The translations under genes were made by a program, and so were the position numbers. A DNA stretch of 64,000 nucleotides from Bryobacterales bacterium (GTDB lineage Bacteria > Acidobacteriota > Terriglobia > Bryobacterales > UBA6623). The notes beneath the pieces are model-generated. The model worked only from the letters and a program-made list of their open reading frames with translations, had not been told where the DNA came from and did no database searches. Location: positions 806,105 to 870,104 of the forward strand of contig OZ241991.1 in assembly GCA_965204095.1 (NCBI GenBank). Reading direction: 5' to 3'. This document shows, piece after piece, positions 5,267-33,227 of this stretch; the stretch's first letter is position 1, and each line of letters begins with the position of its first letter.

Positions 5267-5451
5267 TTAACCTGCCTTTCTCCCCACGTGGCGAGGCGAA
5301 GTGGGTGAGAGGGCCGTCAGGACGAGGCGCGAGCCGCTTGGCGCGCGCAGGCGTACTTGAACAGTACGTTGAGCACGGCAAGCAAACGCAACGAAGTCCT
5401 GGCGGTCGTATCGCGTGCTTCGACCGTCGGGTGGTGAGAAATGCAGGTTAA
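5267..5451 (+). mobile_element. Rep-1 element, copy C (177-bp core 5271-5447, TTAA both sides)
   Basis: Starts 5 nt after the PQQ-ADH stop. The track start 5415 of the next ORF lies inside it. Confidence 0.85.
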
Positions 5452-5525
5452 GATACCGTTCGGAAACGTCGATCGAGCGGTCTGGGAACGACTCGGCCCG
5501 TGGAGCCATCCGGGAGAACGTACCG

Positions 5526-6683
5526 TTGAAAATCACCGACCTCAAAGTCCTCCACACGCAAGGCGGACATGCCAACTGGATCTTCGTCCAGCTCTTCACC
5601 GATCAGGGAATCATCGGCGTCGGCGAGTCGACCATCGAACGCCACCAACTGCCGGTCATCAAGACCCTGGAGTCGTTCAAGGACTTCCTGGTCGGGAAAA
5701 ATCCGTTCGAGATAGAGGCTATTTGGAACGCTCTGTACAAGCAGACCTTCTGGGAGGGGCAGCTCGTGGTGCTGACGGCGCTTTCCGGCGTCGAACAAGC
5801 TCTCTGGGACATTAAAGGTAAAGCTTTAGGAGTTCCCGTTTATGAACTGCTCGGCGGCAAGTTGCGCGACGAGATTCGCGCCTACGCCAATGCCTGGGCA
5901 TTCGAGGGCGTTATCACCGAACCGAGTGTGAAGGATACCGCCGACTTGATTGCCCGGAAAGCGGTGGACACTGTGGACGCCGGCTTCACCGCACTAAAAT
6001 GGGACCCCTTTCGCGAGGGAGGTCAAGTCATTCCGAAAGCGGAAGAGAATTACGCCATTGAAACCGTGAGGGCCGTGCGCGAAGCCGTCGGACCCGATGT
6101 CGATCTGCTCATCGAGTGCCACGGCCGTTTCAACATGTGGAGCGCCATCCGCATGGCTCAGAAGCTGGAGCCGTTCGATCCGTTCTTCTATGAAGAGCCG
6201 ATCCCTCCCGACAACATCGATGCGCTGGCCGAGGTGCAGCGGTCGATCAATATCCCCGTGGCGACCGGCGAACGCCTCTATACGCGCTGGAGCTTCCGTC
6301 CGCTCTTCGAGAAGCAGGCGGCGCGCATCATTCAGCCCGATGTTTGCCACGCCGGCGGGATTCTCGAGTTGAAGAAGATCGCCGCGATGGCCGAATCGTA
6401 CTACGTCTCGATTCAGCCGCACAATTCCAACGGGCCGCTCTGCGTGCTGGCGAGCCTGCAAGTCGACGCCTGCGTGCCGAACGTCATTATTCAGGAGTTT
6501 TTCTACCCCTATCTCGAGCACTACAACGATATCCTCACCCAACCGATCGAGTATGCCGACGGGTTCCTCAAGATGCCGAAAGGCCCGGGGCTTGGGGCCG
6601 ATCTCGACGAAGCGGCCATCCGGAAACGCCCGCCGGTTGACCTGCCCCACGAGGCCGGCTGGATGGGCAAGTACTGGTTCTGA
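5526..6683 (+). CDS. enolase-superfamily sugar-acid dehydratase (mandelate racemase / D-galactonate dehydratase-like)
   Basis: From TTG 5526 the protein begins (M)KITDLKVLHTQGGHANWIFVQLFTDQGIIGVGE, like DgoD-type N-termini. GGGAGA lies 8 nt upstream. The longer track ORF begins inside Rep-1 C. Confidence 0.8.
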   Translation: MKITDLKVLHTQGGHANWIFVQLFTDQGIIGVGESTIERHQLPVIKTLESFKDFLVGKNPFEIEAIWNALYKQTFWEGQLVVLTALSGVEQALWDIKGKALGVPVYELLGGKLRDEIRAYANAWAFEGVITEPSVKDTADLIARKAVDTVDAGFTALKWDPFREGGQVIPKAEENYAIETVRAVREAVGPDVDLLIECHGRFNMWSAIRMAQKLEPFDPFFYEEPIPPDNIDALAEVQRSINIPVATGERLYTRWSFRPLFEKQAARIIQPDVCHAGGILELKKIAAMAESYYVSIQPHNSNGPLCVLASLQVDACVPNVIIQEFFYPYLEHYNDILTQPIEYADGFLKMPKGPGLGADLDEAAIRKRPPVDLPHEAGWMGKYWF

Positions 6684-7393: not shown

Positions 7394-7761
7394 GAAGTTC
7401 TCCTTCCCCTCTTGGAGCTGGAATTGCTGAAGACGGCTATTCGGAATGTAATTGTAGGCTCTCCTGCCATCTCGAGCCCCCCAAATACGATTGATTTGTA
7501 GAACGGTGAGTCCACAGCGGATCTTCGAACGTCTCGACGGAGGCGACGATCTGGAAATGCGATCTTCCTGCCCTCGATTCCGGTTACCCGTTTCTCGTGT
7601 TACGCCATCGTTCCTCAAGGCGCGGTCATCGGCAACTGCCTCGCGTTCATGAAATCGGCTGCCGTACCGGAAACGTCTTCCGAATCCGCCTCTGTGTGAT
7701 CATACCTGCAAACGGGCGATCACCTCCTCCGCCCGGCGTTCCAAGCTACAATCGTCTCGCT

Positions 7762-8460
7762 ATGGCCGTTGAATGGAAATCGGACGAGGAACTCTTCGAG
7801 ATCGCCAGGCGCGAACTGTTTACGGCCGTGGTCGGCGACGCCATGGACAAGCTGGGGCTCGTCCATCAGTTCCTGCCGCCTCAGGTCCGTCCTCTCGAAC
7901 CGTCGATGCGAGCCATCGGCCGGGCGATGCCTCTTCTGGGCGCGGACTGCGTCGAGACGCCGCCCGAAGTCGAGCGGAACAACAAAATCCTCGAACAGCC
8001 CTTCGGCCTGATGCTGCGGGCGCTCGACGACCTCAAGCCCAACGAGATCTACTTCCCGGCCGGAGGGTCGCCCCGCTATGCGCTGTGGGGCGAGCTGATG
8101 GCGACGCGCGCGATGAAGCTCGGCGCCGCCGGAGCAGTGATGAACGGATACTCGCGAGATACCCCGGGCATCCTGGAACTGATGTTCCCGACCTTTTCGT
8201 GGGGACCCTACGCGCAAGACTTCGCGGCTCGCGCCAAGGTGGTCGATTTCCGCTGCCCGATCGAGGTCGAGAGTGTACGTGTCAATCCGGGCGACATCGT
8301 CTTTGGCGACATCGACGGCGTTTGCGTGATCCCTCGTGCATCCGAAGAGGAGGTCTTCACGAAAGCGCTCGAGAAGGCTCGCGGAGAGAAACTCGTCGGC
8401 AGGGCGATAGAGGGCGGCATGTCGGCCACCGAAGCGTTCCGAAAGTTCGGGATCATGTAG
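7762..8460 (+). CDS. RraA-family protein (HMG/CHA aldolase / oxaloacetate decarboxylase-like)
   Basis: ELFTAVVGDAMDKLG, ALWGELMATRAMKLGAAGAVMNGYSRD, GDIVFGDIDGVCVIP. In-frame ATG at 7762. Confidence 0.8.
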   Translation: MAVEWKSDEELFEIARRELFTAVVGDAMDKLGLVHQFLPPQVRPLEPSMRAIGRAMPLLGADCVETPPEVERNNKILEQPFGLMLRALDDLKPNEIYFPAGGSPRYALWGELMATRAMKLGAAGAVMNGYSRDTPGILELMFPTFSWGPYAQDFAARAKVVDFRCPIEVESVRVNPGDIVFGDIDGVCVIPRASEEEVFTKALEKARGEKLVGRAIEGGMSATEAFRKFGIM

Positions 8461-8477
8461 AGCCGCCTTTTGCCTCA

Positions 8478-8746
8478 CTAGTCTGCCTTTCACACCACGC
8501 GGCGAGGCGAAGTGCGTGAGAGGGCCGCCAGGACCAGGCGTAAGCCGGGCGGAGGAAAAAGCGCGAGCCGGGCGAAGAAAAAAGGCGCGCGCAGGCGTAC
8601 TTTACGGTTCAGCGGCCGTCAAACATTTCTTCTGGAGCAAACCGAGCCCCCTGACTAAGGTTTTCACGAATCACGAGACACGAGACACGAATCACGGCCT
8701 TTTTTTCGCGTGCTTCGGCTGTCGGGTGGTGAGCAATGCAGGCTAG
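8478..8746 (+). mobile_element. Rep-1 element, copy D, rearranged (CTAG both sides; centre replaced by other repeat modules)
   Basis: The left arm and the last 40 nt of the right arm are recognisable. The interior carries an internal duplication plus an S-like module and a heptamer array. Confidence 0.7.
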
Positions 8747-8814
8747 AGCCGCCCCAGGCCCGGCCAACAGGTTTTCACGAGACACGAAACACGGCTTTTT
8801 CGTTGCCTCTTGGT

Positions 8815-8839
8815 ACTGAAGCCCTTCAGTCTTGTTTTT
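8815..8839 (+). terminator. hairpin + T-run module (actgaa gccc ttcagt c ttgttttt), repeat-borne
   Basis: 6-bp stem, 4-nt loop, T-rich tail. The same 30-nt module recurs at 9094-9117. The stem is short and AT-rich, so it would be a weak intrinsic terminator. Confidence 0.3.
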
Positions 8840-9093
8840 CCTGCCCCGGCCTGCTAGGCCTGAGCACAGGGAGTCGGCGAGGCGCAGTCCGTGCGGGTCG
8901 CGAATCAGGGCTTCCCAGGCGTTCACCAGCCGCAAGCCACTGATTGTAAGGTCTTTACGGAACACGAATCACAAGACACGAGTCACGGCCGTTATGTTTT
9001 TCACGAATCACGAGACCCGAAACACGAATCACGGCTTTTGGGTTTTTCACGAATCACGAGACTCGAAACACGGTTTTTTTGGTACCTGTTGGT

Positions 9094-9117
9094 ACTGAAG
9101 CCCTTCAGTCTTTTTTT
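9094..9117 (+). terminator. second copy of the hairpin + T7 module
   Basis: actgaa gccc ttcagt c ttttttt, the same module as 8815-8839. Confidence 0.3.
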
Positions 9118-9890
9118 CGGTCGGGGGACGGTTTAGGTTGAAAGTGATGACGCCGTTGTTGGGAACAAAACCCCCATCCGCGCCCGTCGGGGACAAGTCG
9201 GGTGGGGAGAGAAGAGCCGCCCGAGCCGCGGCCTTTCAGGTTTTCACGAAACATGAGACCCGAGACCCGAGACACGGCGATAGCCTGGCGCGCGGCGCAA
9301 GCCAGCGCGAATTCCGAGGTTTTCACGAAACACGAATCACGAGACACGAATCACGAGACACGAATCACGGTTTTTTTTGCATGGGTGGCGCCACCGGAAA
9401 CCGCCGTCCGGACCACTGCGTCCGCCGGCAAGTCACTGTTTCCCGGTTCATCATTGTTCACGATTGTTCGCCATTGTTCGGCAAAAAATATTGTTGGGAG
9501 CCAGTGTCTCCGCGCCGCCCGGACGGCCGTTCCCGCCGCACGGTCACTGCTTTCCTGCGCGCTGTGGGGCGGCTATGACGCGGCATGGGCGGCGTATTGC
9601 TCCCGAGCCGGTGTCCGCGCGCCGTCCGCCGTTCTCGCTCAGACTCACGACGCGCTCCGTTCGCTGGGAATCCCGGAAAAGTGTACAAAATCCCGCTTCC
9701 TACAGGAAAATGCGCCAATCGCATCGCGCCGCAGATCTTGTCGCAACCCGGGCCGCTACCGCTGTGGTGAACGCAACATGAACCCTTATGGCGTTGACAC
9801 TCTCTCTGCCGCACTTTGCGCCTGCCCGAGGAAACAAGCTAGGCTGAGAAACATTCGCAACACTCGCTTCCCTTTTCCAGGAGGAACTCC

Positions 9891-11537
9891 ATGTCGATTC
9901 TCAAAGCGCTCCGTCGCACGAATCCCAGCGGCCTCAGCCGCCGCGAACTCTTCCGCAACGGCGGCCTGCTGGCGGCCGCCGGCCTCGCGCCTGCCGCTGT
10001 GTCCTCTGCTTCCGCCGCTCCCGCGATGAGCTTCGGCTCGGACATGTATCAGTCCATCGGCGTTCGTCCGGTCATCAACGCCAAGGGCACGTTCACGGTG
10101 ATGAGCGGCTCGCTGATGTTGCCCGAATGCCGTCAGGCCATGCAGGAGGCATCGCAGAACTTCGTCCAAATGGACGAGCTGATGGCAGGCGTCGGCAAGC
10201 GCATCGCCGAGATCACCGGCGCAGAATCCGCCATCGTCTCTTCGGGCTGCGCCGCGGCTCTCGTGCATGCCACGTCCGCCTGCATCGCGGGCGGCAACCC
10301 CGAGCGCATTGCCCGGCTGCCCGATCTGGAAGGCCTGAAGAGCGAAATCATCGCTCCGTCCTGGTCGCGCAACACCTACGACCACGCTGTCCGCATGCTG
10401 GGGATCAAGTTCATCGAAGTCGAAAACGAGCAGGAGATGCGCCGCGCCATCGGCGCCAAGACGGCGATGGTCATGGTGCTCGCTACGACTCGTGACAAGG
10501 GGCCGTTCGGACTCAAGGAGATCGCATCGGTAGCTCACGAGCACGACGTGCCGGTCCTGGTGGACGCGGCCGCGGAGGACCTGACCATCCCCAACGTGCA
10601 TCTCGAACGAGGGGCTGATCTTGTCGCCTATTCGGGCGGCAAGGCGTTACGGGGACCGCAGAGCGCCGGCCTGCTGATCGGGCGCAAGGACCTGATCGCC
10701 GCCGCTTGGCTCAACAGCGCGCCGCATCACGCCTTCGGACGCCCGATGAAAGTCGGCAAGGAAGACGCCATGGGTATGCTGGCCGCTGTCGAGATGTGGG
10801 TCAAGCGTGACCACGAGGCCGAGTGGAAGACCTGGGAAAGCTGGCTCGCCGAGATTGCCAACAGCGTCGAGCGCGTGTCGGGAGTGACCACCGAGGTCTC
10901 CCAGCCTCGGGGCTTGTCGAATCGCTCGCCTCGCCTCAGCGTGAAGTGGGACGGAGACAGGATCGGCATTTTCGGCGACGAGGTCGAGAAGCTCCTCTTC
11001 AAGGGGGATCCCCGCATCGTGCTTGCCGGCAGCCGCGGTCGACGGCGCAGGGGCGGTGAGACGTCGGTGACGATCATGCCGTGGCAGATGCAGCCCGGTA
11101 ACGCGAAAGTCATCGCCGCCGAACTGCACCGCGTGCTCTCCAAACCTCCCGAAATGGGCTCGAAGGGATCGCCGGGCGGACCCAACGTCGATGTCGCGGG
11201 CCAGTGGGATCTGCACGTCGACTACGTGCTGGGCAGCGCCGACAACGGGCTCTTCCTCGAGCAGTCGGGCGACGACCTCCACGGAACCCACGTCGGGGAG
11301 GCCACCGCGGCCGACATCCGCGGCTGGGTGGAAGGCAACCAGGTCCACTTCATGGCTCGACATCGCTACGAAGGTTCCGGCTTCGGCTTCACCTTTTCCG
11401 GACAGTTGAACGGAGACAGCATGGAAGGTGAGGTCGATCTCGGCGAATACTCACCCTACGGTCCCGCCAAGTGGTCCGCCAAGCGGCATGAGTACGGCCG
11501 GCCCGGCCCGGTGTTTCGGCCGCAAAAAAACGTCTAG
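9891..11537 (+). CDS. Tat-signal SelA-like (fold-type I, class V-like) PLP-dependent enzyme with a C-terminal beta-rich extension, paralog 1
   Basis: Twin-arginine motif SRRELFRNGGLLAAAGLA. AYSGGKALRGPQSAGLLIG resembles the SelA PLP-lysine loop. AGGAGG lies upstream of the ATG. Clearly homologous along its length to 31614..33227. Confidence 0.8.
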   Translation: MSILKALRRTNPSGLSRRELFRNGGLLAAAGLAPAAVSSASAAPAMSFGSDMYQSIGVRPVINAKGTFTVMSGSLMLPECRQAMQEASQNFVQMDELMAGVGKRIAEITGAESAIVSSGCAAALVHATSACIAGGNPERIARLPDLEGLKSEIIAPSWSRNTYDHAVRMLGIKFIEVENEQEMRRAIGAKTAMVMVLATTRDKGPFGLKEIASVAHEHDVPVLVDAAAEDLTIPNVHLERGADLVAYSGGKALRGPQSAGLLIGRKDLIAAAWLNSAPHHAFGRPMKVGKEDAMGMLAAVEMWVKRDHEAEWKTWESWLAEIANSVERVSGVTTEVSQPRGLSNRSPRLSVKWDGDRIGIFGDEVEKLLFKGDPRIVLAGSRGRRRRGGETSVTIMPWQMQPGNAKVIAAELHRVLSKPPEMGSKGSPGGPNVDVAGQWDLHVDYVLGSADNGLFLEQSGDDLHGTHVGEATAADIRGWVEGNQVHFMARHRYEGSGFGFTFSGQLNGDSMEGEVDLGEYSPYGPAKWSAKRHEYGRPGPVFRPQKNV

Positions 11538-11840
11538 TTGTGATATTTCAAAAGGATATCCGGCTCACCCCGGTCGATCCATAACCGCAGCAGCGGACCG
11601 ATGTTGACTTGATCCCGGCCGGCCAGCGGGAGAGTCGGAGGGTATCGAGAAACGGGATCGGGTTTCCCGATGGCTGGGCTGACGGAACCGGAAGTTGAAG
11701 TCCTTTTGGATCCTGGTGCTTGGCTTGACCCGGCGGATCACGGTCCGGGCTCATCCACTTCCCCTGGCGGCAAGAAGGAGAATACGGGAGCGTCGAAAGC
11801 GGTTCTACGAATCCCCGTCTCTTTTTCTCAGGCCCTCCGT

Positions 11841-12539
11841 CTATTCCTGAGACATCCTCTCTTCGACCGGCACGACCGGCAGCATGGTGAAGATGCGGTT
11901 GCCGGCATCCACTTCCACCGCCAATCCCGTGAACGTCCCCTCCCCCGGCGCGGTGCAGCGCACTGTCCCCACGAAGTCCGTCGTATCGGTCATGGTGAAC
12001 CCCTCTTCGATGAACCACGACATCTGCCCGTTGGCCTCCAGAGGGATCCCTACCTCTTCCAACACGGCGCCCCCGCTCATCAATCGGCACCTCACCTCCA
12101 TCGCTTCCTCTCCCAGGTTGTGCATCGCCGCCGCCGTGTGGATCCCTCCCTCCCGCCTTCGGGCCGGGAACAGGGCGTCCCGCACGGGCGGGCCGGCTCC
12201 CACCCCGGTCACTCCAACCCCCGGGACGCGATAGCGCAGCACCCCGCCGATAGGACCCTCCGAGACCACTTGCACCGAGCCGCTCACCTCCTCCCCGCGA
12301 CCGTGGGTCGCTATCGTGAGTTCTCCCAGCGGCTCCATCGCCGTCCGAACCGTCAGCCCGCCGTCCTCTTGGACTTCCAGATCGCCCGTCACCTCCACCA
12401 CTGATGCGGCGGTCACCGGATCGCCTTGCTGATCGGAAAAGTAGAGGGCGGGGCGGATCGGTATGGCGCCCACATTGACGAGCACCACCTCGGACGTGAT
12501 GCCCTTCCCATTGGCGAAATGCGCGAAGTCCAGGGTAGA
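11841..12539 (-). pseudogene. 5'-truncated fragment of a two-domain beta-sandwich protein (LDFAHFANG...VLVN-type domains)
   Basis: Domain-like sequence starts abruptly at STLDFAHFANGKGITSEVVLVN with no signal peptide or plausible N-terminus. The upstream part of the track ORF overlaps the opposite-strand response-regulator fragment. Confidence 0.45.
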
Positions 12540-12561
12540 CCCTTCCGGTGGCCTGATCAAG

Positions 12562-13116
12562 ATGTGCCGGCCCGACCTAGTCCTGCTGGACCTGCTGCTG
12601 CCCGGGATGGACGGCATCGAGCTGATGCAAAGCGTCCCCGCGCTGGCCGATCGGCCGGTCATCTTCCTGTCCGCGTACGGCAGGGACGAGACGATCGCCC
12701 GCGCTCTGGAGGCCAGAGCGGCCGATTACATCGTCAAGCCGTTCTCGCCGACGGAGCTGGTGGCGAGAATCCAGGCGGCCCTGCGCAAGCGGAACGCACC
12801 GCGCCCGCTCTATCAGATGGGAGAGTTGGCCATCGACTACGACGAGCGCCGGGTGAGCCTGGCCGGCCGCCCAGTGCAACTGACCGCCACCGAATACAAT
12901 CTGCTACGCGAGCTCTCGGTCAAGGCCGGGCGCGTTTTGACCTACGAAGACCTGCTGCGCCGGGAGTGGGGTCCGAAGGACGCCAGTGACGCCCGGCTGG
13001 TGCGCGCCTTCGTGAAGAAGCTCCGCCGCAAGCTGGGCGACGATGCGAGCCGCCCAACGTACATCTTGAACGAGCACGGGGTCGGCTACCGCATGGCCAA
13101 GCCGGAGAATGGCTGA
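12562..13116 (+). pseudogene. OmpR-family response regulator lacking about 45 N-terminal residues of the receiver domain
   Basis: Homology begins at PDLVLLDLLLPGMDG (beta3 with the phospho-acceptor Asp). The acidic-pocket N-terminal strand is absent. The winged-helix C-terminus is intact (LTATEYNLLRELS..., YILNEHGVGYRM). Confidence 0.7.
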
Positions 13117-13266
13117 GAATCTTCCCCTCCGGAGCCGAAGAGGACCGGAACCATAAAGAAGACAGAACATGGAAATCGACATTGCTTTAGTCCGCATCGC
13201 CGAGACCGCGCTGTGGATGATGGATCACATCATGAACAATCGGCTGAGCCTGGCGTTCGGCCGGAG

Positions 13267-13792
13267 CTATGTCCGCATTCCGCTTGAAGGCTCGCCGCAT
13301 ATCTTGAACGCCGATGCGCTGGAAACCGACTGGACGGCATTGTTGCCGCCAGAGGCATTCCTGCCCTCACAGAACGCAAGCAGCGTGCCTTTCTGGGTGG
13401 TGACCAACGCCGGGATTCGGTTTGAATGGGGAGACCGTCAAAATCATCACGCAGTTTTCTCCGAAATATCTAATCCCGGCGATCGCTGTTGCAGCCGCCA
13501 CACTCGCTAGCCCCTTCGGCCGCTTGCAGGTGGACGGGGCAAGCAAGTCAGCCAAACGCTCCAGGCAGGCTCACAAACCAGCCTCAAAGCTCCTTACTAT
13601 TGTTTTGTTGTCTTCCAGCAACACGGTCGTCGGATGCCCCAGGTATTGGCCGGCCCCACGGTCCACCGTTACCTGTCGATGGGTCTCCGCGGCCAAATCA
13701 ATCGTCGGAATCCCTTACCCTTTGGACACTTTGGATGCGACTTTTTGAGCGGCAGCAGGTGTTGCCGCTAGGAAAAGGACCGTTGCCGTCAT
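13267..13792 (-). pseudogene. relics of sialidase/BNR-type (GH33-like) gene(s)
   Basis: Reverse frame reads MTATVLFLAATPAAAQKVASKVSKG-TAA-GIPTIDLAAETHRQVTVDRGAGQYLGHPTTVLLEDNKTIV, i.e. a signal peptide followed by an in-frame stop. A separate short frame reads SNRIPALVTTQKGTLLAFCEGR (FRIP-type motif) bounded by stops. Confidence 0.45.
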
Positions 13793-13898
13793 TGCTGCCC
13801 TCAAACCCACGACGCCCGGCAATACCTTGGCTTTGGCCGAGCGATAATTTCGGTTGATCAAAATGCTTCTCCCTTACCGGACAACTAAGTGTGTTCCC

Positions 13899-16800
13899 TC
13901 AGAACTTGATTTCGGCTCCGAACTGCCAGATGCGCGGGTCATGCACTGACGAAATCTGACCGAAAGCACTGGAGTTTACATTGTCTTGGGGATTTCTCAA
14001 GTTCGGATGGTTCAACGAGTTGAAGGCTTGTATGCGGACCCGAAGAGCGATCTGCTCGGTAAGATGGAAATCGCGGTGCAATCCGAGGTCCAACAGAAAG
14101 AAACTTGGTCCCCGATTGTGAGCGTCCCGAATCGGCGCGGTACCGTAGTGTCCGTCCACAAGCGAGTAGGCATCCGGGCTAGTCCAGATTATGTTTCCGT
14201 TCGACGCCACAGTCCCGCGGACGCTCCTGCTGGCCTCGCCGGCGTCGGTGAGTAGATCAGGACGCTGACTACCTGGCAGTCCGTTACTGGCGCTCTGGCG
14301 AACTGCAAGTGGGGCACCGGACTGAGTCATCAGCGTGCTTGTTATCTGCAAGCGCCCCAGCAGGATGTTGAGGGTCTTGTTGCCGGAATACCTACCCCCT
14401 GAGCCAAATGGGGAATCATATACCAAATTAGCGACTAGGTTGTGCGGCCGGTCGTAAGCACCCACAGCCCGAGCGTCCCGCAAGTTGTAGGGGTTCTGCT
14501 CGCGTCCCCTGATGTTCCCGCTGGCATTGGCGATGACGTTGTCGATCTCCTTCGACAAGGTATAGCCAACCAGGAAGGCAAGCCCGCCACCGAACCGCCT
14601 CTGAAACGTAAGCTGCATGGCGTGGTAGAGTGAGTCGCGATCGTTCTGAAACGCACTTGCGCCGCCATACTGGGGGAACGGATGTGAGGCGCGCTCGCGA
14701 GTGATCGTAGGAGCGCCAAGAGTGCCTGGGACGAGGCCGGCAAGCGGGTTGGGAACTCTCTCATCCAAGAACGTCCGAGCGGCCCCCTGTTGTCCGCTAG
14801 CTTCCTGCAACGCGACAGCCTCCTGTATCAGGGACTCAGGGGCAAGATTGTAGCCGCGATTTGAAAGCAGGCGTAAGCCTCTGTTCCCGGTGTAGAGAAT
14901 CTCTAACAGCGTGTTCCGCCACAACTCCCGCTGCACTCCGAAATTCCATTGATAGATGCGGGGATTTTCAAGCTGCCGGTTCAGTGGATTGGTAAAGCCA
15001 AGACCAAGATAGGCGGCTTCCCCACGCGGCCCATCTGCGGGAGGGAGTTCATAGTTCCCTCTCAGTACCAGAGCCGGCTCGGCGGAGGCGGGCTTTAGCG
15101 GGCTGAAAGTCGTCTCAAACCCCGGCGCGGCGGCGAAATACCCCGAGGTCGGAATCGGCGAGTAATAAACACCGAAACCCCCACGAATAACCGTACCTGC
15201 CAGACGACTCGGAGAATATGCAAATCCAAACCGAGGCGACCAGTTGTTGTAATCGCCGATCCGAATATTTCGCGAATTTCCCCCGATGCCCGCGTACTGG
15301 AATACCCCCGGAAGGCTGACAATCGAGTTTGCGGAAGTTGTGTCTAACCAACCGACTTGATTGTTCTGCTCCAACAAAGGCCCAACCGCCTCCCAACGCA
15401 ACCCGAGATTCAGTGTTAACGTGGGTAGAACCTTAAAGTCATCCCCAAAATACAGCGCTGGAGCGCTCTGATGAACACGGACGAGCGGCTGCCGCTGAAT
15501 CGTCACAGCGTTAGGCAGGCCAAGCAGTCCGGACGCCACAGAGAACCCGGTGCCCGACGTTCCCTTCCCGGTCTGACTTGCGCTGAAAGACCACGATCCG
15601 TTTGGCAGGCCGGTGGCGACGAGGCCCGAGAGATACTGCCGCCGTAGATCGGCGCCGAAACGCATACTATGCTCGCCTTTTTGCCAGGAGAATGCCGGAT
15701 TGATCTGGAAATTTTCAGAAATAAAGCTCTGTGGACTTCCTGTGCCGATAGAGTGGAAACCGGCGAAATTAGCGCGAGGAGTCAGGTTCAGGATATTCCC
15801 CTCCTCCAAAGCTGGCGTGATGCTGTACCCAAAGAGTGAAGTTCCTTGGGTGTTCCTCGTCAAATCGGTGATCTGTCGATTCCATTTCGTATACCCGGCG
15901 CTCGCAGAAAACAGCAATGAGGGACTAAGAGTGTACGAATAATTCGCTGTCAGGTTGGAGGAAGGAAACTTAATGAATTGGGACGCGGGATCGTGAAGAC
16001 CTAAGACCTTATCTGAATCTGCGTCTGATCGTACTCTTGTGACTTTGAACATCAGCTTCTGCCTGTGGGACAAGACGTGGTCGACTCTGGCCGTCATGTT
16101 ATCGACTTTGACAAACGAAAAAAACCTTCCCAGGAAGTTGGAAGCGGGCCCTACTCCCCTGTTTGGTTCAGGATAGACACGCAGCATCTGCTCCCCGAAG
16201 CTATTGAACTGCGACACGGGAATTTGATTGTTGGGGTATGGCGTGCGATCAGCGGCAGAGCTCGCACTTGCGGGGTCATATACGACCTCGCTGATCTCAG
16301 AGAAATCACCAGCACGCATCTTCAAAGTCGGGATCGTGGTGACTTGAGGGAATTTCCGAATCCACCGGGCTGAGTCCCATCCGAAGAAGAAGAATGAGCG
16401 ATTTCGTGCGATCGGCCCGCCTACACTGCCACCGAACTGGTTGTAGACATTGGGTGGTTTGGCGGCTGTTGCGGGCAGAGCTAATCTTGTCTGGGTTGCC
16501 GTACTGCGGTGAGCATAGAAGAGGTTGCCGTGGAGTTCATTGCTGCCGCCTTTCGTCACGAAATTGACTACGCCGCCCACCGTATGACCATGTTCAGCCG
16601 ACATCGCCCCAGACTGCACTCGGAACTCCTGGAGGGCGTCCGCCGCTGGAAGCGCCAGTATAGAACCATCGCGTAAGTTTGTTACGCTAATTCCATCCAC
16701 CAGATATTCCTGATAACCACCTGAGCTGGTGCGAATGCCTCCATTGATGTTGTAACGCGACGTGATGTTTGCACCGTCGCTACCTGGCCGATTGAACGAC

Positions 16801-17333
16801 GCATTCCCTTCTCTGGTGACCACCCCGGGGGTCAGCATCATCAGGGCGAGAGGATTCCGTGTTTGAAGAGGCAAGGATTCGAGCTGGCGCTCGGTTACGA
16901 TTTGCCCCTTAGTGCCAGTGTCATAGTCAAGTAACGTGCTGTCAGCGGTAACAGTAATAACTTCCCGAGTGGAAGCAATTTGCAGAACCACATCGACCCT
17001 GGTCACTCGGTTCACCTCGACCGCGATCGCGGTGATGCGAACCGGATCGAAGGCGCTGTGCGTGGCGGACAAGATGTAACTCCCCGGTTGTAACTGCACG
17101 AAACGATAAATCCCTTCTTCGTTCGATTTCGTTTCGAATGACACACCGGTCAGCTCATGCCGGAGCTGCACTGTCACGGCGGGGATGATGGCCGCGCTCG
17201 AGTCGCTCACAGCTCCTGTGACCGTGCCAGTGGATTGGGCTATTCCCGCATGGGGAATGGCAAACATCAAGAGTATCCAAACAACCGAGAATACTCCTAA
17301 TACTCTGATCCTTTGTGGTCGTGACGGAAGCAT
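13899..17333 (-). CDS. TonB-dependent outer-membrane receptor with N-terminal carboxypeptidase-regulatory-like domain
   Basis: TGTVTGAVSDSS...YRFVQLQPGSYILSATH (CarboxypepD_reg), a plug region, a long beta-barrel, and a terminal ...FGAEIKF. Lower GC than neighbouring genes. Confidence 0.9.
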   Translation of the reverse strand: MLPSRPQRIRVLGVFSVVWILLMFAIPHAGIAQSTGTVTGAVSDSSAAIIPAVTVQLRHELTGVSFETKSNEEGIYRFVQLQPGSYILSATHSAFDPVRITAIAVEVNRVTRVDVVLQIASTREVITVTADSTLLDYDTGTKGQIVTERQLESLPLQTRNPLALMMLTPGVVTREGNASFNRPGSDGANITSRYNINGGIRTSSGGYQEYLVDGISVTNLRDGSILALPAADALQEFRVQSGAMSAEHGHTVGGVVNFVTKGGSNELHGNLFYAHRSTATQTRLALPATAAKPPNVYNQFGGSVGGPIARNRSFFFFGWDSARWIRKFPQVTTIPTLKMRAGDFSEISEVVYDPASASSAADRTPYPNNQIPVSQFNSFGEQMLRVYPEPNRGVGPASNFLGRFFSFVKVDNMTARVDHVLSHRQKLMFKVTRVRSDADSDKVLGLHDPASQFIKFPSSNLTANYSYTLSPSLLFSASAGYTKWNRQITDLTRNTQGTSLFGYSITPALEEGNILNLTPRANFAGFHSIGTGSPQSFISENFQINPAFSWQKGEHSMRFGADLRRQYLSGLVATGLPNGSWSFSASQTGKGTSGTGFSVASGLLGLPNAVTIQRQPLVRVHQSAPALYFGDDFKVLPTLTLNLGLRWEAVGPLLEQNNQVGWLDTTSANSIVSLPGVFQYAGIGGNSRNIRIGDYNNWSPRFGFAYSPSRLAGTVIRGGFGVYYSPIPTSGYFAAAPGFETTFSPLKPASAEPALVLRGNYELPPADGPRGEAAYLGLGFTNPLNRQLENPRIYQWNFGVQRELWRNTLLEILYTGNRGLRLLSNRGYNLAPESLIQEAVALQEASGQQGAARTFLDERVPNPLAGLVPGTLGAPTITRERASHPFPQYGGASAFQNDRDSLYHAMQLTFQRRFGGGLAFLVGYTLSKEIDNVIANASGNIRGREQNPYNLRDARAVGAYDRPHNLVANLVYDSPFGSGGRYSGNKTLNILLGRLQITSTLMTQSGAPLAVRQSASNGLPGSQRPDLLTDAGEASRSVRGTVASNGNIIWTSPDAYSLVDGHYGTAPIRDAHNRGPSFFLLDLGLHRDFHLTEQIALRVRIQAFNSLNHPNLRNPQDNVNSSAFGQISSVHDPRIWQFGAEIKF

Positions 17334-17374
17334 TGAAATAACCCTCCCATAACCCTCATAACCCTTTCGTTAAT

Positions 17375-18115
17375 CTACTTCCGGGAACCGTCGATTGCGG
17401 CGTCTGCACGCCTCAGCGTCTCGGAAGCTTTTGACTGACCGTCCTCGTCGGAGCTAATGTATCGCCCATATGACAACTCGATGTGTTCACGAACCGCCTC
17501 GGCGATGGCCTGGTCTTCCCGGCTTCGGAGGGCCGCGACAAGGGGCTCATGCGGCCGGACAACTGCTGTAAGATTCGCACGAGACCGGCTGCGACACACA
17601 CAGATATACGCGAACAGCGGTATCGTTACCTGCTCCAAGATCCGAGAGAGAAGGGTGTTGCCCGACTTCTGCCAGATAAAGCGGTGAAACTCCAGGTCCA
17701 CTTTTTCGACTTCGTAGTAGGAGTTTTCGGAAGTGAGTCTCGAGATCTCCTCGGCTCGCTGCTGTAAGATGTCGAATTCTTCGGGGGACAGCCGGGCGGC
17801 GGCTTCAATTGCAGCGTGCTGTTCCAAGTGAGTCCGAACAATACAGCGCTCGTGTATTTCACTGGGGGATAGTGCAGCGACGTAGGTGCCTTTGTTGGGA
17901 ACCCGCACTGCCAGATGGGCGCACTCCAGTTGAAGCAATCCCTCACGGACGGTGGCCTGGCTCACCTTCAGCTCACGCGCGAGGTGGAGCTCTCGGAGAG
18001 CAGCCCCGGGCTGAAGCGCGCCAGAGAATATTGCTGATCTCATGGCCTCGAAAACCAGATCAGAGGCCGATGAAGGCTTGATGGGCTCAAACTGAACCGG
18101 GGGTGTGGTCGTCAT
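17375..18115 (-). CDS. GntR-family transcriptional regulator (FadR/FCD-type C-terminal domain)
   Basis: LRELHLARELKVSQATVREGLLQLE winged HTH plus a helical C-terminal domain. Confidence 0.85.
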   Translation of the reverse strand: MTTTPPVQFEPIKPSSASDLVFEAMRSAIFSGALQPGAALRELHLARELKVSQATVREGLLQLECAHLAVRVPNKGTYVAALSPSEIHERCIVRTHLEQHAAIEAAARLSPEEFDILQQRAEEISRLTSENSYYEVEKVDLEFHRFIWQKSGNTLLSRILEQVTIPLFAYICVCRSRSRANLTAVVRPHEPLVAALRSREDQAIAEAVREHIELSYGRYISSDEDGQSKASETLRRADAAIDGSRK

Positions 18116-18510
18116 CGATTAATGGATCTATGCCCTTCTGAATTATCGTTAAGTCAATTTGTACTGAATCCTCCGGGGTTTGTCAAGCAAAATCTGACCA
18201 GCCTGTCAAGACTCGATAGAAATGTCCCCCTGGGCAACTCGGGCAGTTGCTCGCGCTCGATGCGGCCGTTGATCCATCTGAGACGGAAGGCCTCCGAACC
18301 GCCGAGGCAGATCACGCCGTCCGCGCTGGGTTCCCTGGGAATTGCGCGCAATCTGGCGTCCGTTGGAATGAGGAAAAGCGGGGACTCCTTTGGTTTCACC
18401 GACCTTGAGAACCGCCGGAAAATGTCCAGAAATGTCCGGGTGCAAGGGGGGTAAAATTTCTGTGGAAGACTGCTAACTGCTTTGTTTGCTGCTATTTAAT
18501 TGTCGCCGAA

Positions 18511-19185
18511 ATGTCGGCGGTGGGCAGATTTTCCGTATCTTTTCTGGTACAGCGGTGGCATGATCTCTTGCAGCCACTCGCAGCACTCCTTCAAGGTACG
18601 AAAACGCCCTGCCCAAGAAGGCGCGGGGGCTCAGCGGACGGCGGGCGCGTGGAGGTGGACGAGACCTATGTCGGTGAAGAGGAAGGGGTTCGCGGACGCC
18701 AGAGGTGGAAGAAAGCGCTGGTAGTGGTGGCAGCCGAGGAGGACGGCAACGGCATCGGAAGGATTCGGATGGGGCGCATCCAGCGGGCCACCAAGACCGA
18801 ACTGCACGCCTTTGTCAAGCAATCGGTCGAGGCTGGCAGCACCGTCCACACCGACGGCTGGGAGGGAATCGGATACCGGCACGAGTTCACCTTTCTGGCC
18901 GGCAAGGAAAAATCGGCGGCCGAACTGCTGCCGCGCGTTCACCGTGTGGCTTCCCTTCTCAAGCGCTGGTTGGTTGGAACCCATCAGGGGGCGGTGAGCC
19001 ACAAACATCTCGCCTATTACCTGGACGAGTTCACGTTCCGTTTCAATCGCCGCACCCCGCGTCACCGAGGCAAATTGTTCTTCCGGTTAGTCCAACAGGC
19101 GGTCGCCGTGCCCCCGAGGGCGTATCGAGAGATGGTGCAGCCTGCCCGAGATCCTCGAACAGGTCAACCACAAGATATGGGGTAA
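18511..19185 (+). mobile_element. IS1595-family (ISXO2-like DDE) transposase gene, 5'-truncated or decayed
   Basis: RVEVDETYVG, STVHTDGWEGIGY, LLPRVHRVASLLKRWLVGTHQGAVSHKHLAYYLDEFTFRFNRR. The N-terminal zinc-ribbon region is missing. No inverted repeats identified. Confidence 0.7.
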
Positions 19186-19403
19186 ACGGGAGTCAAGTGC
19201 ATACCCCAATCCGTTGAAAGTTAGCTGAAACACCTGATCTTCTTTATCACCCATAGGGTGTTGACCTCCAGCCGGTCCTGCCAGGGCTTAAACCGCTATG
19301 AATACAGACGCTGAAGGCCGCTGGAAGGTCGGGATGCCGGAATCAAATTGAAAATCCGGGTTTAAAGCAACACGCCCTTTCGACCCACCGCCCGACACTG
19401 CAC

Positions 19404-23037: not shown

Positions 23038-23652
23038 GTGACAGAAGAGGGATCGATGGCTGACTCGAACGCGGGCCAAGCCGGAGCGGAGCGGGGGGCT
23101 CCGGCCGAAGCTAAACCTCCCTTCCTCTCCCGCCTGATCGAAGGATTCAAGAAGACGGAAGCAGACAAGGACGCGGTTCGAACGCGCCGCCTGTTCGTCG
23201 GCTTCGCAATCTCCGGCTTCTTGACGACCAACTTTCTGATGTTCCTGCGGTTTTTCTTCCCGCGGACCATCTTCGAGCCGCGCACGGTGTTTCGCATCGG
23301 GACGCCGAACGATTTTGGCTTCGGCGTCGACACGAAGTTTCAAAAGTCACAACGGATCTGGGTGGTCAAGAATACCGAACGGCTGTTCGTGATCAGTGCG
23401 ATCTGCACCCACCTGGGCTGCACGCCGGATTGGAAGCAGTCTGAGCAGAAGTTCAAATGTCCGTGCCACGGCAGCGGCTACGACCCGGAGGGGATCAACT
23501 ACGAGGGCCCGGCGCCGCGCCCGATGGACCGCGCCTGGGTGGAGCTCGATGCTGAAGGGCAGATCGTCGTCGACACCAGCGTGGTTTTCAAAGAAGAAAA
23601 AGGCAAGCAGACGCAGTTCAATGACTACCCGGGGGCTTTCATACCCGTGTAA
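23038..23652 (+). CDS. Rieske [2Fe-2S] subunit of a cytochrome bc/b6f-type complex
   Basis: CTHLGC ... CPCHGS boxes. Tat-like RTRRLFVGFA followed by a TM helix. Start is GTG 23038 or ATG 23056. Confidence 0.9.
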   Translation: MTEEGSMADSNAGQAGAERGAPAEAKPPFLSRLIEGFKKTEADKDAVRTRRLFVGFAISGFLTTNFLMFLRFFFPRTIFEPRTVFRIGTPNDFGFGVDTKFQKSQRIWVVKNTERLFVISAICTHLGCTPDWKQSEQKFKCPCHGSGYDPEGINYEGPAPRPMDRAWVELDAEGQIVVDTSVVFKEEKGKQTQFNDYPGAFIPV

Positions 23653-23761
23653 GCACTTGCGGAACCGGGTCGGTCGGTACGCCGGAACAGGGCGGGACAG
23701 GCGCTGGAATCGCCTTTTGCTGATCGCGGCCGGACTTTTGGCCTGACAAGGAGTTGGCGGC

Positions 23762-24679: not shown

Positions 24680-24695
24680 GGCTGGAGAACGACAA

Positions 24696-25631: not shown

Positions 25632-25682
25632 CGATCTCCGGGGACTAGCAAAGACTGCCCGAACAAGAAGACCTCCAACGAA

Positions 25683-28688: not shown

Positions 28689-28762
28689 GGAACTCATCCG
28701 GCCGTGCCTGCCCACGCCGCATTTGATCGTAGTTGCAGCATTCAAACAAGGAAGGTGTTCAC

Positions 28763-31613: not shown

Positions 31614-33227
31614 ATGCCAAAAACATCGTCGATCAAAGACCGTGCCCGGCTGAGCCGCCGGGACATCTTCCGGGGAGGAGGCCTTGCCGCTTCGGGTTTG
31701 CTGGCTGGGACGGCCTCGATGTCCGCCGCCGCAATGCCTGTGTCGCCCAGCGTCTACACGCGGGTCGGCGTCAAACCCTTCATCAACCTGACGGCGGCCG
31801 TCACGATCAACGGCGGCATGCTGACGTTGCCCAACGTGAAGCAAGCGATGGAGGAAGCATCCTACTTTTCCGTCAACCTGGACGAGCTGATGGAAGGCGT
31901 CGGCAAGCGCCTCGCTGAGATTTTCCAATGCGAGGCGGCCCTTGTCACGTCCGGCGCGGCAGGGTCATTGACGCATGCCACCTCGGCTTGCCTCGCCGGG
32001 GGCGATCCCGAACGGATTCAGCAGTTGCCTGATCTGACGGGGCTCCGCACGCAGGTCATCATGCCCCGCGAGTCGCGCAATACGTATGACCATGCGATTC
32101 GAGCCCTCGGCGTGAAGATGATCACCGTCGACACCCGCGAGGAATTTTACCGCGCACTGAGCCGCAACACCGCGATGATTTCCGTGCTCGGCAACGCGGA
32201 ATCGCGGGGGCCGATCCGCCTCGAGGAGTTCGTCGAAGCCGGACACAAGTACGGAGCGCCGGTGGTCGTCGATGCTTCGCCGGAGTGGCCGCAGTCGCCG
32301 GACCCCTACCTGGAGCGCGGCGCTGACCTCGTCGCCTATTCGGGCGGCAAGATCTGCGCCGGCCCACAGTGCAGCGGATTCTTGATTGGCCGCAAAGACC
32401 TCATCCACGCCGCTTGGATGAACAGTTCGCCTCATCACGCTTTCGGCCGCATGATGAAGGTCGGCAAGGAAGAGATCATGGGCGCGTTGGTGGCTGCCGA
32501 GTTCACCTTGAGCCGGCGCAACGTCGAGCACGAACTCGACAAGTGGAACGGCTGGATCAGGCGGATTGACGCCAAGCTCAAGAAGGTTCCCGGGGTGCGG
32601 ACGAAGCACAACCCGCCGCCGGGCAAGAATCCGCATCCCGTTCTCGAGATCGCCTGGGACCCCGAGCGCATCGGCTACACCGCTGGAGAGGTCCACGATG
32701 TCCTGATGGGCAGCGAGCCTCGGGTTCAGACTCACGCGGGGGGCGAGGGCCACAGTTTCGCCATTCGGGTCGGTAACTGCCGCGAGGACCAGATCGATGT
32801 GGTGGCGGACCGCCTCGCGGAGGTCTTCCGCAGTGCGCCCACGCCGAAACCAGAACGCAACATGCCTCCGGCAGCGGATGTCTCCGGCCGTTGGGATGTG
32901 GAGATCAGCTTTGTCCGCGGCTCAGCCCGTCATAGCCTGTACTTCGATGCCGAAGGCGGTCATCTGCGCGGAACGCACATCGGACAACGCGGACAAGGCG
33001 AGCTGGCCGGCTCCATCAATGGCAACCACGTCCGCTTCCGCAGTCGATTGACGTACGACGCCGAGCGCAGCAGTTATCTGTTCGACGGCGAGCTGAAGGG
33101 CGACGAGATTGCCGGCGCTCTCGATCTCGGCGAATACGGCAAGGCCACCTTCAAGGCGTGGCGTCACGCATACGGAAAACCGCGCCGCAAAGACCCTTCC
33201 GTTTCCGGGAAAACAGAGAAAATATAA
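31614..33227 (+). CDS. Tat-signal SelA-like PLP-dependent enzyme, paralog 2
   Basis: SRRDIFRGGGLAASGLLAG; AYSGGKICAGPQCSGFLIG. Same domain order and same C-terminal extension as 9891..11537. Confidence 0.8.
   Translation: MPKTSSIKDRARLSRRDIFRGGGLAASGLLAGTASMSAAAMPVSPSVYTRVGVKPFINLTAAVTINGGMLTLPNVKQAMEEASYFSVNLDELMEGVGKRLAEIFQCEAALVTSGAAGSLTHATSACLAGGDPERIQQLPDLTGLRTQVIMPRESRNTYDHAIRALGVKMITVDTREEFYRALSRNTAMISVLGNAESRGPIRLEEFVEAGHKYGAPVVVDASPEWPQSPDPYLERGADLVAYSGGKICAGPQCSGFLIGRKDLIHAAWMNSSPHHAFGRMMKVGKEEIMGALVAAEFTLSRRNVEHELDKWNGWIRRIDAKLKKVPGVRTKHNPPPGKNPHPVLEIAWDPERIGYTAGEVHDVLMGSEPRVQTHAGGEGHSFAIRVGNCREDQIDVVADRLAEVFRSAPTPKPERNMPPAADVSGRWDVEISFVRGSARHSLYFDAEGGHLRGTHIGQRGQGELAGSINGNHVRFRSRLTYDAERSSYLFDGELKGDEIAGALDLGEYGKATFKAWRHAYGKPRRKDPSVSGKTEKI

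Follow-up and report, generated by a model that had tools for sequence, protein, structure and literature searches.

We have analysed a 64-kb stretch of DNA from a Bryobacterales bacterium (contig OZ241991.1, positions 806,105 to 870,104; the whole stretch is called the window below), and have found in it two genes, copy 1 and copy 2 (Table 1), whose products share a three-part architecture: a twin-arginine signal, a full-length DgaE/SelA-like fold-type-I module for pyridoxal 5'-phosphate (PLP) with a Schiff-base lysine, and a C-terminal β-barrel of ~100 amino acids (aa) with eight predicted strands. Judging from these sequences and from the gene neighbourhoods of relatives, we consider it rather probable that both proteins leave the cytoplasm through the twin-arginine translocation (Tat) pathway and act in the periplasm as PLP-dependent ammonia-lyases on non-phosphorylated 2-amino-3-hydroxy acids. 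That the substrate should be specifically an amino-aldonic acid is a more tentative suggestion, which we hold with clearly less confidence. An earlier note, based on a reading of the sequence, had described for copy 1 a twin-arginine signal, a SelA/DgaE-like PLP fold with its lysine loop and an extra C-terminal β-rich domain, and had pointed to copy 2 as a paralog of the same architecture; each of these features has been recovered in the analyses below, for which AlphaFold2 was run on the full-length copy 1 protein and on its C-terminal domain alone.

The two copies are 45% identical across their full length (E = 2e-151), and a tblastn search of the window has found no copy beyond these two. 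The GC content at third codon positions (0.78–0.82) supports both as real genes. In addition, copy 1 has thousands of homologs, with E values down to 0, and a chance open reading frame (ORF) is far from plausible.

Table 1 Features of the two enzyme genes and of the sugar-acid genes upstream of copy 1 in the window.
Feature	Positions	Strand	Evidence or remark
Copy 1 gene, Tat-signal DgaE-like PLP enzyme with C-terminal β-barrel	9891..11537	+	ORF, 548 aa, ATG start; NCBIfam TIGR01437 E = 7.6e-54, below cutoff; AlphaFold2 pLDDT 86.7
Shine-Dalgarno-like AGGAGG	9879..9884	+	read from sequence; 6 nt 5' of copy 1 ATG; supports start at 9891
Predicted Tat signal peptide, copy 1 aa 1–42	9891..10016	+	sequence reading; putative cleavage after A40-S41-A42
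Twin-arginine motif S-R-R-E-L-F, copy 1 aa 16–21	9936..9953	+	R17/R18 invariant in 64/64; L20/F21 in at least 90%
DgaE/SelA-like fold-type-I PLP module, copy 1 aa 49–418	10035..11144	+	profile alignment to 7lc0 residues 2–362, E = 2e-50; Foldseek TM 0.86 to 7lc0 and 8t7j
Codon of K251, predicted Schiff-base lysine (YSGGK), copy 1	10641..10643	+	aligns to DGL YSGAK lysine; invariant 64/64
C-terminal 8-stranded up-and-down β-barrel (predicted), copy 1 aa 437–533 (G437-x-W439 ... G-E-Y ... W-x-A-x-R-H)	11199..11489	+	AlphaFold2; weak Foldseek barrel matches
Copy 2 gene, paralog, same three-part architecture	31614..33227	+	ORF, 537 aa; TIGR01437 E = 1.4e-34; own subfamily of homologs
Twin-arginine motif S-R-R-D-I-F, copy 2 aa 14–19	31653..31670	+	strict Tat motif in 103/115 full-length subfamily members
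Codon of K246, predicted PLP lysine, copy 2	32349..32351	+	alignment to copy 1
C-terminal β-barrel (predicted), copy 2 aa 425–518	32886..33167	+	40% identical to copy 1 barrel
Galactonate dehydratase (enolase superfamily), cytoplasmic	5415..6683	+	NCBIfam NF010624 342 bits vs 311 cutoff
RraA-like aldolase-family gene, upstream of copy 1	7597..8460	+	Pfam RraA-like E = 4.5e-29; no signal peptide; likely start M55 at 7759

The N-terminus of copy 1 has all the elements expected of a Tat signal, i.e., a S/T-R-R-x-F/L-L/F motif (SRRELF), a moderately hydrophobic h-region (GGLLAAAGLAPAAV) and an A-x-A c-region (ASA), and the signal of copy 2, with SRRDIF, has the same layout. The copy 1 h-region (G24–V37) is rich in Gly and Ala, with a mean Kyte-Doolittle value of 1.7. 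The nearest characterised relative by sequence is DGL (DgaE), the cytoplasmic glucosaminate-6-phosphate ammonia-lyase. The signal makes up exactly the 48 residues that precede the homology to DGL, since residue 2 of DGL aligns to residue 49, and residues 1–40 are predicted to be disordered, with a predicted local distance difference test score (pLDDT) below 55 in the AlphaFold2 model. The twin-arginine (RR) motif is present in 113 of the 120 homologs of copy 1, and in the other seven the gene call is either truncated or over-extended. In the copy 2 subfamily the full-length homologs that depart from the strict pattern (12 of the 115) are mostly RR-x-A-F variants or have truncated starts. Altogether, motif, h-region and AxA are kept in ~95% of 235 homologs, at identities of 45–97%. 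The Rieske protein and the DUF1501 protein of the window, which are classical Tat clients, likewise bear RR signals, and the organism therefore probably uses Tat.

Export of a folded PLP enzyme by this route has precedents in Pseudomonas, where PvdN and PtaA are exported via Tat with PLP bound, and in PvdN the binding of PLP in the cytoplasm, or the PLP lysine, is needed for transport competence (PMC6206403). Both are fold-type-I PLP enzymes and offer a mechanistic precedent for export (PMC6206403), but they belong to other subfamilies (class V/cysteine-desulfurase-like and transaminase, respectively), tailor siderophores rather than break down nutrients, and have neither the β-barrel nor RidA, amidohydrolase or aldolase partners. 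Tat export of a PLP enzyme is thus not new by itself.

The signal would lose its meaning if copy 1 were an ordinary cytoplasmic DgaE ortholog whose start has been called too far upstream, with the apparent signal left untranslated. Certain database entries (P0009, P0012, P0117) do begin downstream of the RR motif. On the other hand, the RR motif and h-region are kept at the protein level in homologs down to 45–60% identity, which argues against a miscalled start codon, and the AGGAGG precedes the upstream ATG by 6 nt; a start downstream of the motif, which the earlier note had named as the outcome that would overturn it, fails on these sequence grounds. As for orthology, copy 1 scores 183 bits against TIGR01437 (curated cutoff 385.3) and 175 against NF047797, the DgaE equivalog model (cutoff 600), while copy 2 reaches 119.6 and 117.6 bits, respectively. 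By these scores the window proteins are not DgaE orthologs. The window also holds no phosphotransferase system (PTS) and no KDPG aldolase gene, i.e., not the canonical setting of a cytoplasmic DgaE operon, and the enzymes have lost the His-His loop and most of the phosphate-binding arginines of DGL. We regard a mistaken start in a true DgaE ortholog as highly improbable.

Apart from the signal, the catalytic part of copy 1 closely follows DGL. Residues 49–414 align end to end with DGL residues 2–362, in a single-sequence comparison (E = 5.4e-38, ~28% identity) as well as at the profile level (E = 2e-50). The AlphaFold2 model, built from 64 homologs, has a mean pLDDT of 86.7 and a predicted template-modelling (TM) score of 0.80, and its top Foldseek matches are DGL (7lc0; TM 0.86, E = 5.9e-28) and Cap15 (8T7J; TM 0.86), with SelA lower. 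Thus copy 1 has the fold-type-I SelA-like fold with the expected lysine in a YSG(A/G)K loop (AYSGGKALRGPQSAG). In the family alignment of 64 sequences, whose members are 44–84% identical to copy 1, K251, D225, R284, K287, K290 and E291 are invariant. R226 of DGL binds the α-carboxylate (PMC9529869), and its equivalent R265 is Arg in 56 of the 64 sequences.

Two parts of the DGL active site are not shared. The His-162/His-163 loop is strictly conserved among DGLs even at ~40% identity, and the H163A mutant lets the free enamine go (PMC9529869). This loop is absent here: copy 1 has T/R and copy 2 has A/E at the aligned positions 200/201, where the 64 homologs mostly have Pro or variable residues and never His. 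Of the phosphate-binding cluster Arg-301/332/346, one in three is kept, as R348 at the R301 position (Arg in 55 of 64; Val in copy 2), while the R332 position is G/A and the R346 position W/Y in the family; this region is aligned by sequence only, and the conserved R386 nearby might compensate. As the phosphate-binding arginines are mostly lost and the two histidines are absent, the substrate is apparently non-phosphorylated, as would suit an enzyme of the periplasm.

A selenocysteine-synthase-type or cysteine-desulfurase-type enzyme, which would move selenium or sulfur, is suggested by weak Pfam matches to SelA and Aminotran_5 and by database names such as 'L-seryl-tRNA(Ser) seleniumtransferase' at JGI. 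We have rejected both identities on hidden Markov model scores and context: the SelA model TIGR00474 gives 36 bits against a cutoff of 267.9, and SufS-type models are marginal. tRNA-Pro is the sole tRNA of the window, no tRNA-Sec being found there, and no SelB or SelD family is present among the scanned window ORFs, in agreement with the earlier note, which had denied a selenocysteine synthase context. Moreover, an exported enzyme has no access to a tRNA. This alternative is effectively refuted.

For the reaction, we have surveyed the gene neighbourhoods of relatives, with genes called in 82 loci and their neighbours clustered. RidA-family genes (PF01042; TIGR00004) lie immediately adjacent in 13 loci, equal to 14 of 69 target clusters at 80% identity, and this is an enrichment over more distant genes of the same loci (13/160 adjacent vs 7/549 at three or more genes away; Fisher p = 4.5e-5). 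All of these adjacent RidA genes carry Tat (RRKF/RRGF-type) or Sec signals, some are triple-RidA fusions, and the P-x-R-T/A-T catalytic-Arg motif is kept in all but one frameshifted call (L063). Genes for a PRK09237-type 'amidohydrolase/deacetylase family metallohydrolase' (NF006689, 439 bits vs cutoff 371) occur within two genes in 10 loci, with export signals on those examined. RraA-like aldolase-family genes occur within two genes in 8 loci and never at three or more genes away; those outside window-type loci have Sec signals. Genes for TonB-dependent outer-membrane proteins (OMPs) show no enrichment near the gene compared with farther positions of the same loci (Fisher p = 0.75), and recur only in well-organised clusters. 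In the copy 2 subfamily, one locus (L084) has the order RidA – FmdA/AmdA amidase – DgaE-like. The export signals of the partner genes themselves lend support to export of the lyase.

Two clusters bring the components together. On plasmid pACIX902 of Granulicella tundricola MP5ACTX9 (L086, NC_015065.1, 24.3–38.5 kb, 11 genes), a co-directional cluster runs from a histidine kinase, a response regulator, a CarboxypepD_reg OMP and RraA to a barrel-less DgaE-like protein (421 aa), RidA, a DgaE-like protein with barrel (532 aa, 44% identical to copy 1), an amidohydrolase/deacetylase, a 7-bladed lactonase, a flavin adenine dinucleotide (FAD)/BBE oxidase, a hypothetical protein and a GH35 glycosidase. 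Tat signals are found on both lyases, RidA and the lactonase, and Sec signals on RraA, the amidohydrolase and GH35; the BBE oxidase and the annotated start of the OMP show no export signal. The other cluster is a SusC/SusD polysaccharide-utilisation locus on a plasmid of the Bacteroidota member Chondrinema litorale (L088, NZ_CP111044.1, 163.4–173.6 kb), with the order FecR – SusC – SusD – RidA – DgaE-like (406 aa) – amidohydrolase/deacetylase – RraA – polysaccharide deacetylase. All five translated enzymes after SusD have export signals, those of the lyase and RidA being of Tat type. Since the exported module is present in Bacteroidota as well as in Acidobacteriota, it crosses phyla.

The cytoplasmic DgaE operons on Bartonella and C. 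difficile plasmids have the order transporter/PTS – amidohydrolase/deacetylase – DgaE – KDGP aldolase (– sugar kinase). By analogy, the exported module would likewise combine deacylase, lyase and aldolase, but with an aldolase of another type, with RidA as an extra component and with TonB-dependent uptake in place of the PTS. The likeness to DgaE/DGL therefore covers the operon logic in relatives (PRK09237-type amidohydrolase, lyase, then a 2-keto-3-deoxy-acid aldolase) besides the whole catalytic fold, the PLP lysine motif, the Asp facing the pyridine nitrogen, the carboxylate-binding Arg and the R/K/K/E cluster after the lysine. The differences lie in the low identity and sub-cutoff scores of the window enzymes, their Tat signal and β-barrel, the missing histidines and two of three phosphate-binding arginines, and, in the relatives, an RraA-like enzyme in place of KDPG aldolase.

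Based on the above analyses, we propose the following course. The enzyme would fold and bind PLP in the cytoplasm and then be exported by Tat. In the periplasm it would catalyse a DgaE-type reaction, i.e., the α,β-elimination of water from an unphosphorylated 2-amino-3-hydroxy acid to an enamine/imine, which would be hydrolysed to a 2-keto-3-deoxy acid and ammonia. In relatives, the substrate may enter through TonB-dependent outer-membrane transporters, an exported PRK09237-type amidohydrolase would first take off the N-acyl group, and deamination by the PLP lyase would follow, with the exported RidA quenching the enamine/imine and an exported RraA-like aldolase cleaving the resulting 4-hydroxy-2-keto acid. 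The likeliest substrate class would be 2-amino-2-deoxy-aldonic acids of the glucosaminate/galactosaminate type, derived from amino-sugar oxidation. The earlier note had seen no assigned reaction for a periplasmic SelA-like PLP enzyme; this stands with a refinement, as the context of relatives narrows the candidate reaction to β-elimination/deamination within a putative periplasmic deacylase–lyase–RidA–aldolase pathway.

The same export and β-elimination could also serve a periplasmic D-amino-acid dehydratase, acting on free β-hydroxy D-amino acids (D-serine, D-threonine) that the neighbouring amidohydrolase would free from peptidoglycan or N-acyl-D-amino acids. The DGL substrate has the D-amino-acid configuration, D-Ser and D-Thr are among the compounds that the analogous OngC deaminates, serine/threonine dehydratases classically work together with RidA, and a gene of the OSBS/N-acylamino-acid-racemase (NAAAR) type abuts the copy 1 counterpart in a close relative. 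However, pyruvate and 2-ketobutyrate need no aldolase, yet RraA-like aldolases recur, even fused to the barrel of this family, and the GH35, lactonase, BBE sugar oxidase, polysaccharide deacetylase and SusC/SusD genes of the clusters point to carbohydrates. We consider this dehydratase unlikely, though it deserves more weight than the other alternatives.

A pathway of comparable chemistry is known for oxidised chitin in Pseudoalteromonas, where OngB deacetylates N-acetylglucosaminate, the PLP enzyme OngC deaminates glucosaminate to 2-keto-3-deoxygluconate (KDG), and the RidA protein OngD is essential (PMC9537276). It shares with the proposed route the N-deacetylation of an amino-aldonic acid, the PLP deamination, the RidA-family protein and TonB-dependent uptake (PMC9537276). 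In contrast, OngC is of fold type III and has no relation to DgaE, OngB is of D-aminoacylase type and not PRK09237-type, all three proteins are predicted to be cytoplasmic, and the KDG formed is phosphorylated, with no cleavage by an RraA-like aldolase.

The C-terminal part of both copies is, by the models, a domain of its own. After a linker of ~18 residues, residues ~437–533 of copy 1 are predicted as eight consecutive β-strands, with pLDDT of 84–95 in the full-length and domain-only models (84 in the domain-only one), and G-x-W in strand 1 and G-E-Y … W-x-A-x-R-H at the end are conserved. A search of the Protein Data Bank with Foldseek gives weak calycin-type matches only (best E = 4e-4, TM 0.45–0.61, 10–16% identity), among them the CBASS Cap15 receptor 7N34 (E = 4e-4), domains of quinohemoprotein amine dehydrogenase, FABP/CRBP, avidins and PvdP. 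The predicted eight-stranded up-and-down antiparallel topology, the ~100 residues and the G-x-W in the first strand resemble small calycin-type barrels (lipocalin/FABP/avidin), while the match to their structures is weak and the curated model Calycin_like PF13944 is not matched. No Pfam or NCBIfam model matches either window barrel, even at E <= 10 and E <= 1; the sole curated barrel match is below threshold (27.4 bits vs cutoff 30), in a 7-repeat protein.

An exhaustive profile search has found 3271 cluster representatives of the barrel at E <= 1e-3, of which 793 reach E <= 1e-10. Some are small proteins that consist of the barrel alone, in part with a Sec signal, others are tandem arrays of up to 7–8 copies, and in others again the barrel forms the C-terminus of a DgaE-like enzyme. 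In one protein (P0225) the barrel follows a Sec signal and is fused to the N-terminus of an RraA-like enzyme, in an operon (L091 4488–8230) of the order Sec-RidA×3 – Tat-DgaE-like (414 aa, barrel-less) – Sec-[barrel+RraA-like]. The barrel is thus a mobile domain without a curated model. Since it moves between two consecutive enzymes of the proposed pathway, it should serve the pathway, by binding a shared intermediate or mediating association, rather than the catalysis of one enzyme; it would be an accessory module outside the catalytic fold, for ligand binding or enzyme–enzyme association. Long (barrel) and short (barrel-less) Tat-signal paralogs often stand side by side, and differ at family-invariant positions, e.g., H279/H280 and R160/N161.

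Two further occurrences of the barrel are recorded here. Stand-alone barrels with Sec signals (119–127 aa; L056 6368–6751 and L061 150–509) lie ~1.2 kb upstream of Tat-signal DgaE-like genes. On plasmid pSymA of S. meliloti (L087 7932–9536), a 534-aa homolog has the barrel and no signal peptide. The other genes of its cluster encode PEP mutase (aepX), an aminotransferase, a cytidylyltransferase and a CDP-alcohol phosphatidyltransferase, and here the same architecture may serve phosphonate-related biosynthesis.

Several observations weigh against an exported lyase of sugar acids. Neither RidA nor amidohydrolase genes are found in the window by tblastn, thus none near either copy, and the only RraA-like gene there is signal-less. 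Around relatives the gene context is heterogeneous, and ~80% of lineages have no RidA neighbour. The distal pocket differs between the copies, R348, R386 and P397/W398 of copy 1 being V, a gap and V/G in copy 2, so that the copies probably differ in substrate and at least one should have a different one. The signal-less homolog of S. meliloti implies that the architecture is limited neither to exported enzymes nor to one role. Periplasmic cleavage of a sugar acid to pyruvate would be unusual. Finally, Cap15, with O2-dependent chemistry and not elimination, is among the closest structural relatives.

This last point, together with some of the others, would suit an exported PLP enzyme of other chemistry, which tailors a periplasmic or secreted metabolite by O2-dependent oxidative decarboxylation, as Cap15 and PvdN do, or by transamination like PtaA. 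Cap15 (8t7j) is structurally as close as DGL (TM 0.86, profile E = 3.5e-45), PvdN and PtaA, the sole characterised Tat-exported PLP enzymes, are tailoring enzymes, and the S. meliloti homolog sits in a biosynthetic cluster. On the other hand, the conserved genes nearby are of a catabolic type (transporters, glycosidase, deacylase, aldolase), RidA suits an enamine/imine product, and the several paralogs per genome and thousands of soil Acidobacteriota sequences have no biosynthetic cluster around them. Cap15 itself, the O2/PLP-dependent monooxygenase-decarboxylase of capuramycin biosynthesis, shares the DgaE/SelA-like structural family, but it is cytoplasmic and biosynthetic, performs oxidative chemistry on a nucleoside amino acid, and has neither signal nor barrel. 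We therefore give a tailoring role only a small chance, and retain the exported ammonia-lyase as the preferred reading. For the window copies, this functional assignment draws on homologs of 44–62% identity that share the invariant active-site set.

If the lyase reading is extended to all the partners, a fully periplasmic and phosphate-free route for amino-sugar acids can be outlined, which we offer as a possibility and with more doubt than the export and elimination themselves. It would consist of TonB-dependent or SusC/SusD uptake, N-deacylation, the Tat-exported PLP lyase, exported RidA and an exported RraA-type aldolase, and would be common to Acidobacteriota and to polysaccharide-utilisation loci of Bacteroidota as an extracytoplasmic twin of the PTS-linked DgaE pathway. 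The calycin-like barrel, on the lyase or on the aldolase, might bind a shared intermediate or hold the enzymes together, and RidA would have its first defined role outside the cytoplasm.

Both PLP enzymes and RidA proteins are taken to be cytoplasmic. If this large and conserved clade of Tat-exported DgaE-like enzymes, with its thousands of sequences and its several copies per acidobacterial genome, is truly paired with RidA, amidohydrolase and aldolase partners that are exported too, the deamination chemistry of PLP would reach into the periplasm. This would also indicate how the abundant Acidobacteria of soils and sponges, and certain Bacteroidota, obtain carbon and nitrogen from oxidised amino sugars, e.g., those of chitin treated by lytic polysaccharide monooxygenases or oxidases, and of other glycans. 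Neither the enzyme family nor the export of PLP enzymes by Tat is new. In the literature searched, which covered the family, exported RidA and the RidA/RraA/amidohydrolase module, we have found no description of the exported clade, of its barrel, of exported RidA partners or of the putative periplasmic pathway. The analysis also defines a widespread β-barrel domain without a curated model, and gives a testable function to genes that are at present annotated as 'aminotransferase class V-fold PLP-dependent enzyme' or, wrongly, as 'selenocysteine synthase'. Two cultured strains, Granulicella tundricola MP5ACTX9 and Chondrinema litorale, allow a test of the proposed pathway, and the pACIX902 cluster of the former is a ready experimental system.

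The family is large. A word-indexed search has returned thousands of relatives of ~510–550 aa, annotated as 'aminotransferase class V-fold PLP-dependent enzyme' or mis-named as selenocysteine synthase or DgaE. With one genome taken per species, at least 416 of the 598 pattern matches listed encode a relative. The best 80 relatives are all from Acidobacteriota (Bryobacterales, Solibacteraceae, Terriglobia, Vicinamibacterales, Acidoferrales), and the genomes hold several copies each, frequently in tandem.

A Rhizobium ruizarguesonis plasmid (L089 5426–7203) encodes a cytoplasmic DgaE-like enzyme of 398 aa that keeps the S-H-H loop and adjoins RidA in an ABC-transporter operon. The query has matches in ~139 plasmid records of Rhizobium, and those listed are matched over the same catalytic region, aa 46–418, so that a pairing with RidA may be a general trait of the wider family. 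Loss of the His-His loop, an attractive idea in view of the H163A mutant of DGL, was considered as a sufficient reason for the RidA partnership and was rejected, because this cytoplasmic homolog has SHH and yet RidA next door.

In the window itself, copy 1 is preceded by genes for a cytochrome c, a PQQ dehydrogenase with Sec signal, galactonate dehydratase and the signal-less RraA-like protein; by genomic proximity, the galactonate dehydratase places copy 1 in a sugar-acid neighbourhood. Compared with other Bryobacterales metagenome-assembled genomes (MAGs), the window is 93–97% identical. A 7.85-kb segment directly downstream of copy 1 (11538–19384) is missing from the closest such MAG (L001/OZ242366.1), and contains a 273-aa ORF, an OmpR-type response regulator, a 1144-aa CarboxypepD_reg/β-barrel OMP, a GntR/FCD regulator and an IS1595-family transposase. 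The segment parts copy 1 from the OSBS/NAAAR-type gene (TIGR01928 335 bits, DgcA-like E = 7.6e-35), which the DgaE-like gene directly abuts in the MAG. The difference is probably a transposase-associated insertion or deletion.

Upstream of copy 1, at 8640–9370, there are six copies of a 46–57 nt unit of CACGA[AG][AT]C heptamers (e.g., TTTTCACGAATCACGAGACACGAAACACGAATCACGGC), plus a second repeat pair of 64 nt, and spurious ORFs in these repeats translate to 'TKHETRD'-like peptides. An Rfam scan of 8300–12000 for a leader or riboswitch, with the repeats included, gives nothing at E <= 0.1.

Copy 2 is flanked by heme A synthesis genes on one side and by a gene for an ASPIC/FG-GAP protein on the other. 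Directly upstream of it, a respiratory cluster (23038–31360) encodes the RR-signal Rieske protein, a split cytochrome b, a 1001-aa multi-haem cytochrome c, a CarboxypepD_reg-domain protein, CtaA and CtaB. Near the end of the window, a 1124-aa Type ISP restriction-modification enzyme with N6_Mtase, Eco57I and Type_ISP_C domains is encoded on the reverse strand (60285–63659), and the 62–64 kb bin, which covers the 5' half of this gene, has the highest GC content of the window (0.69).

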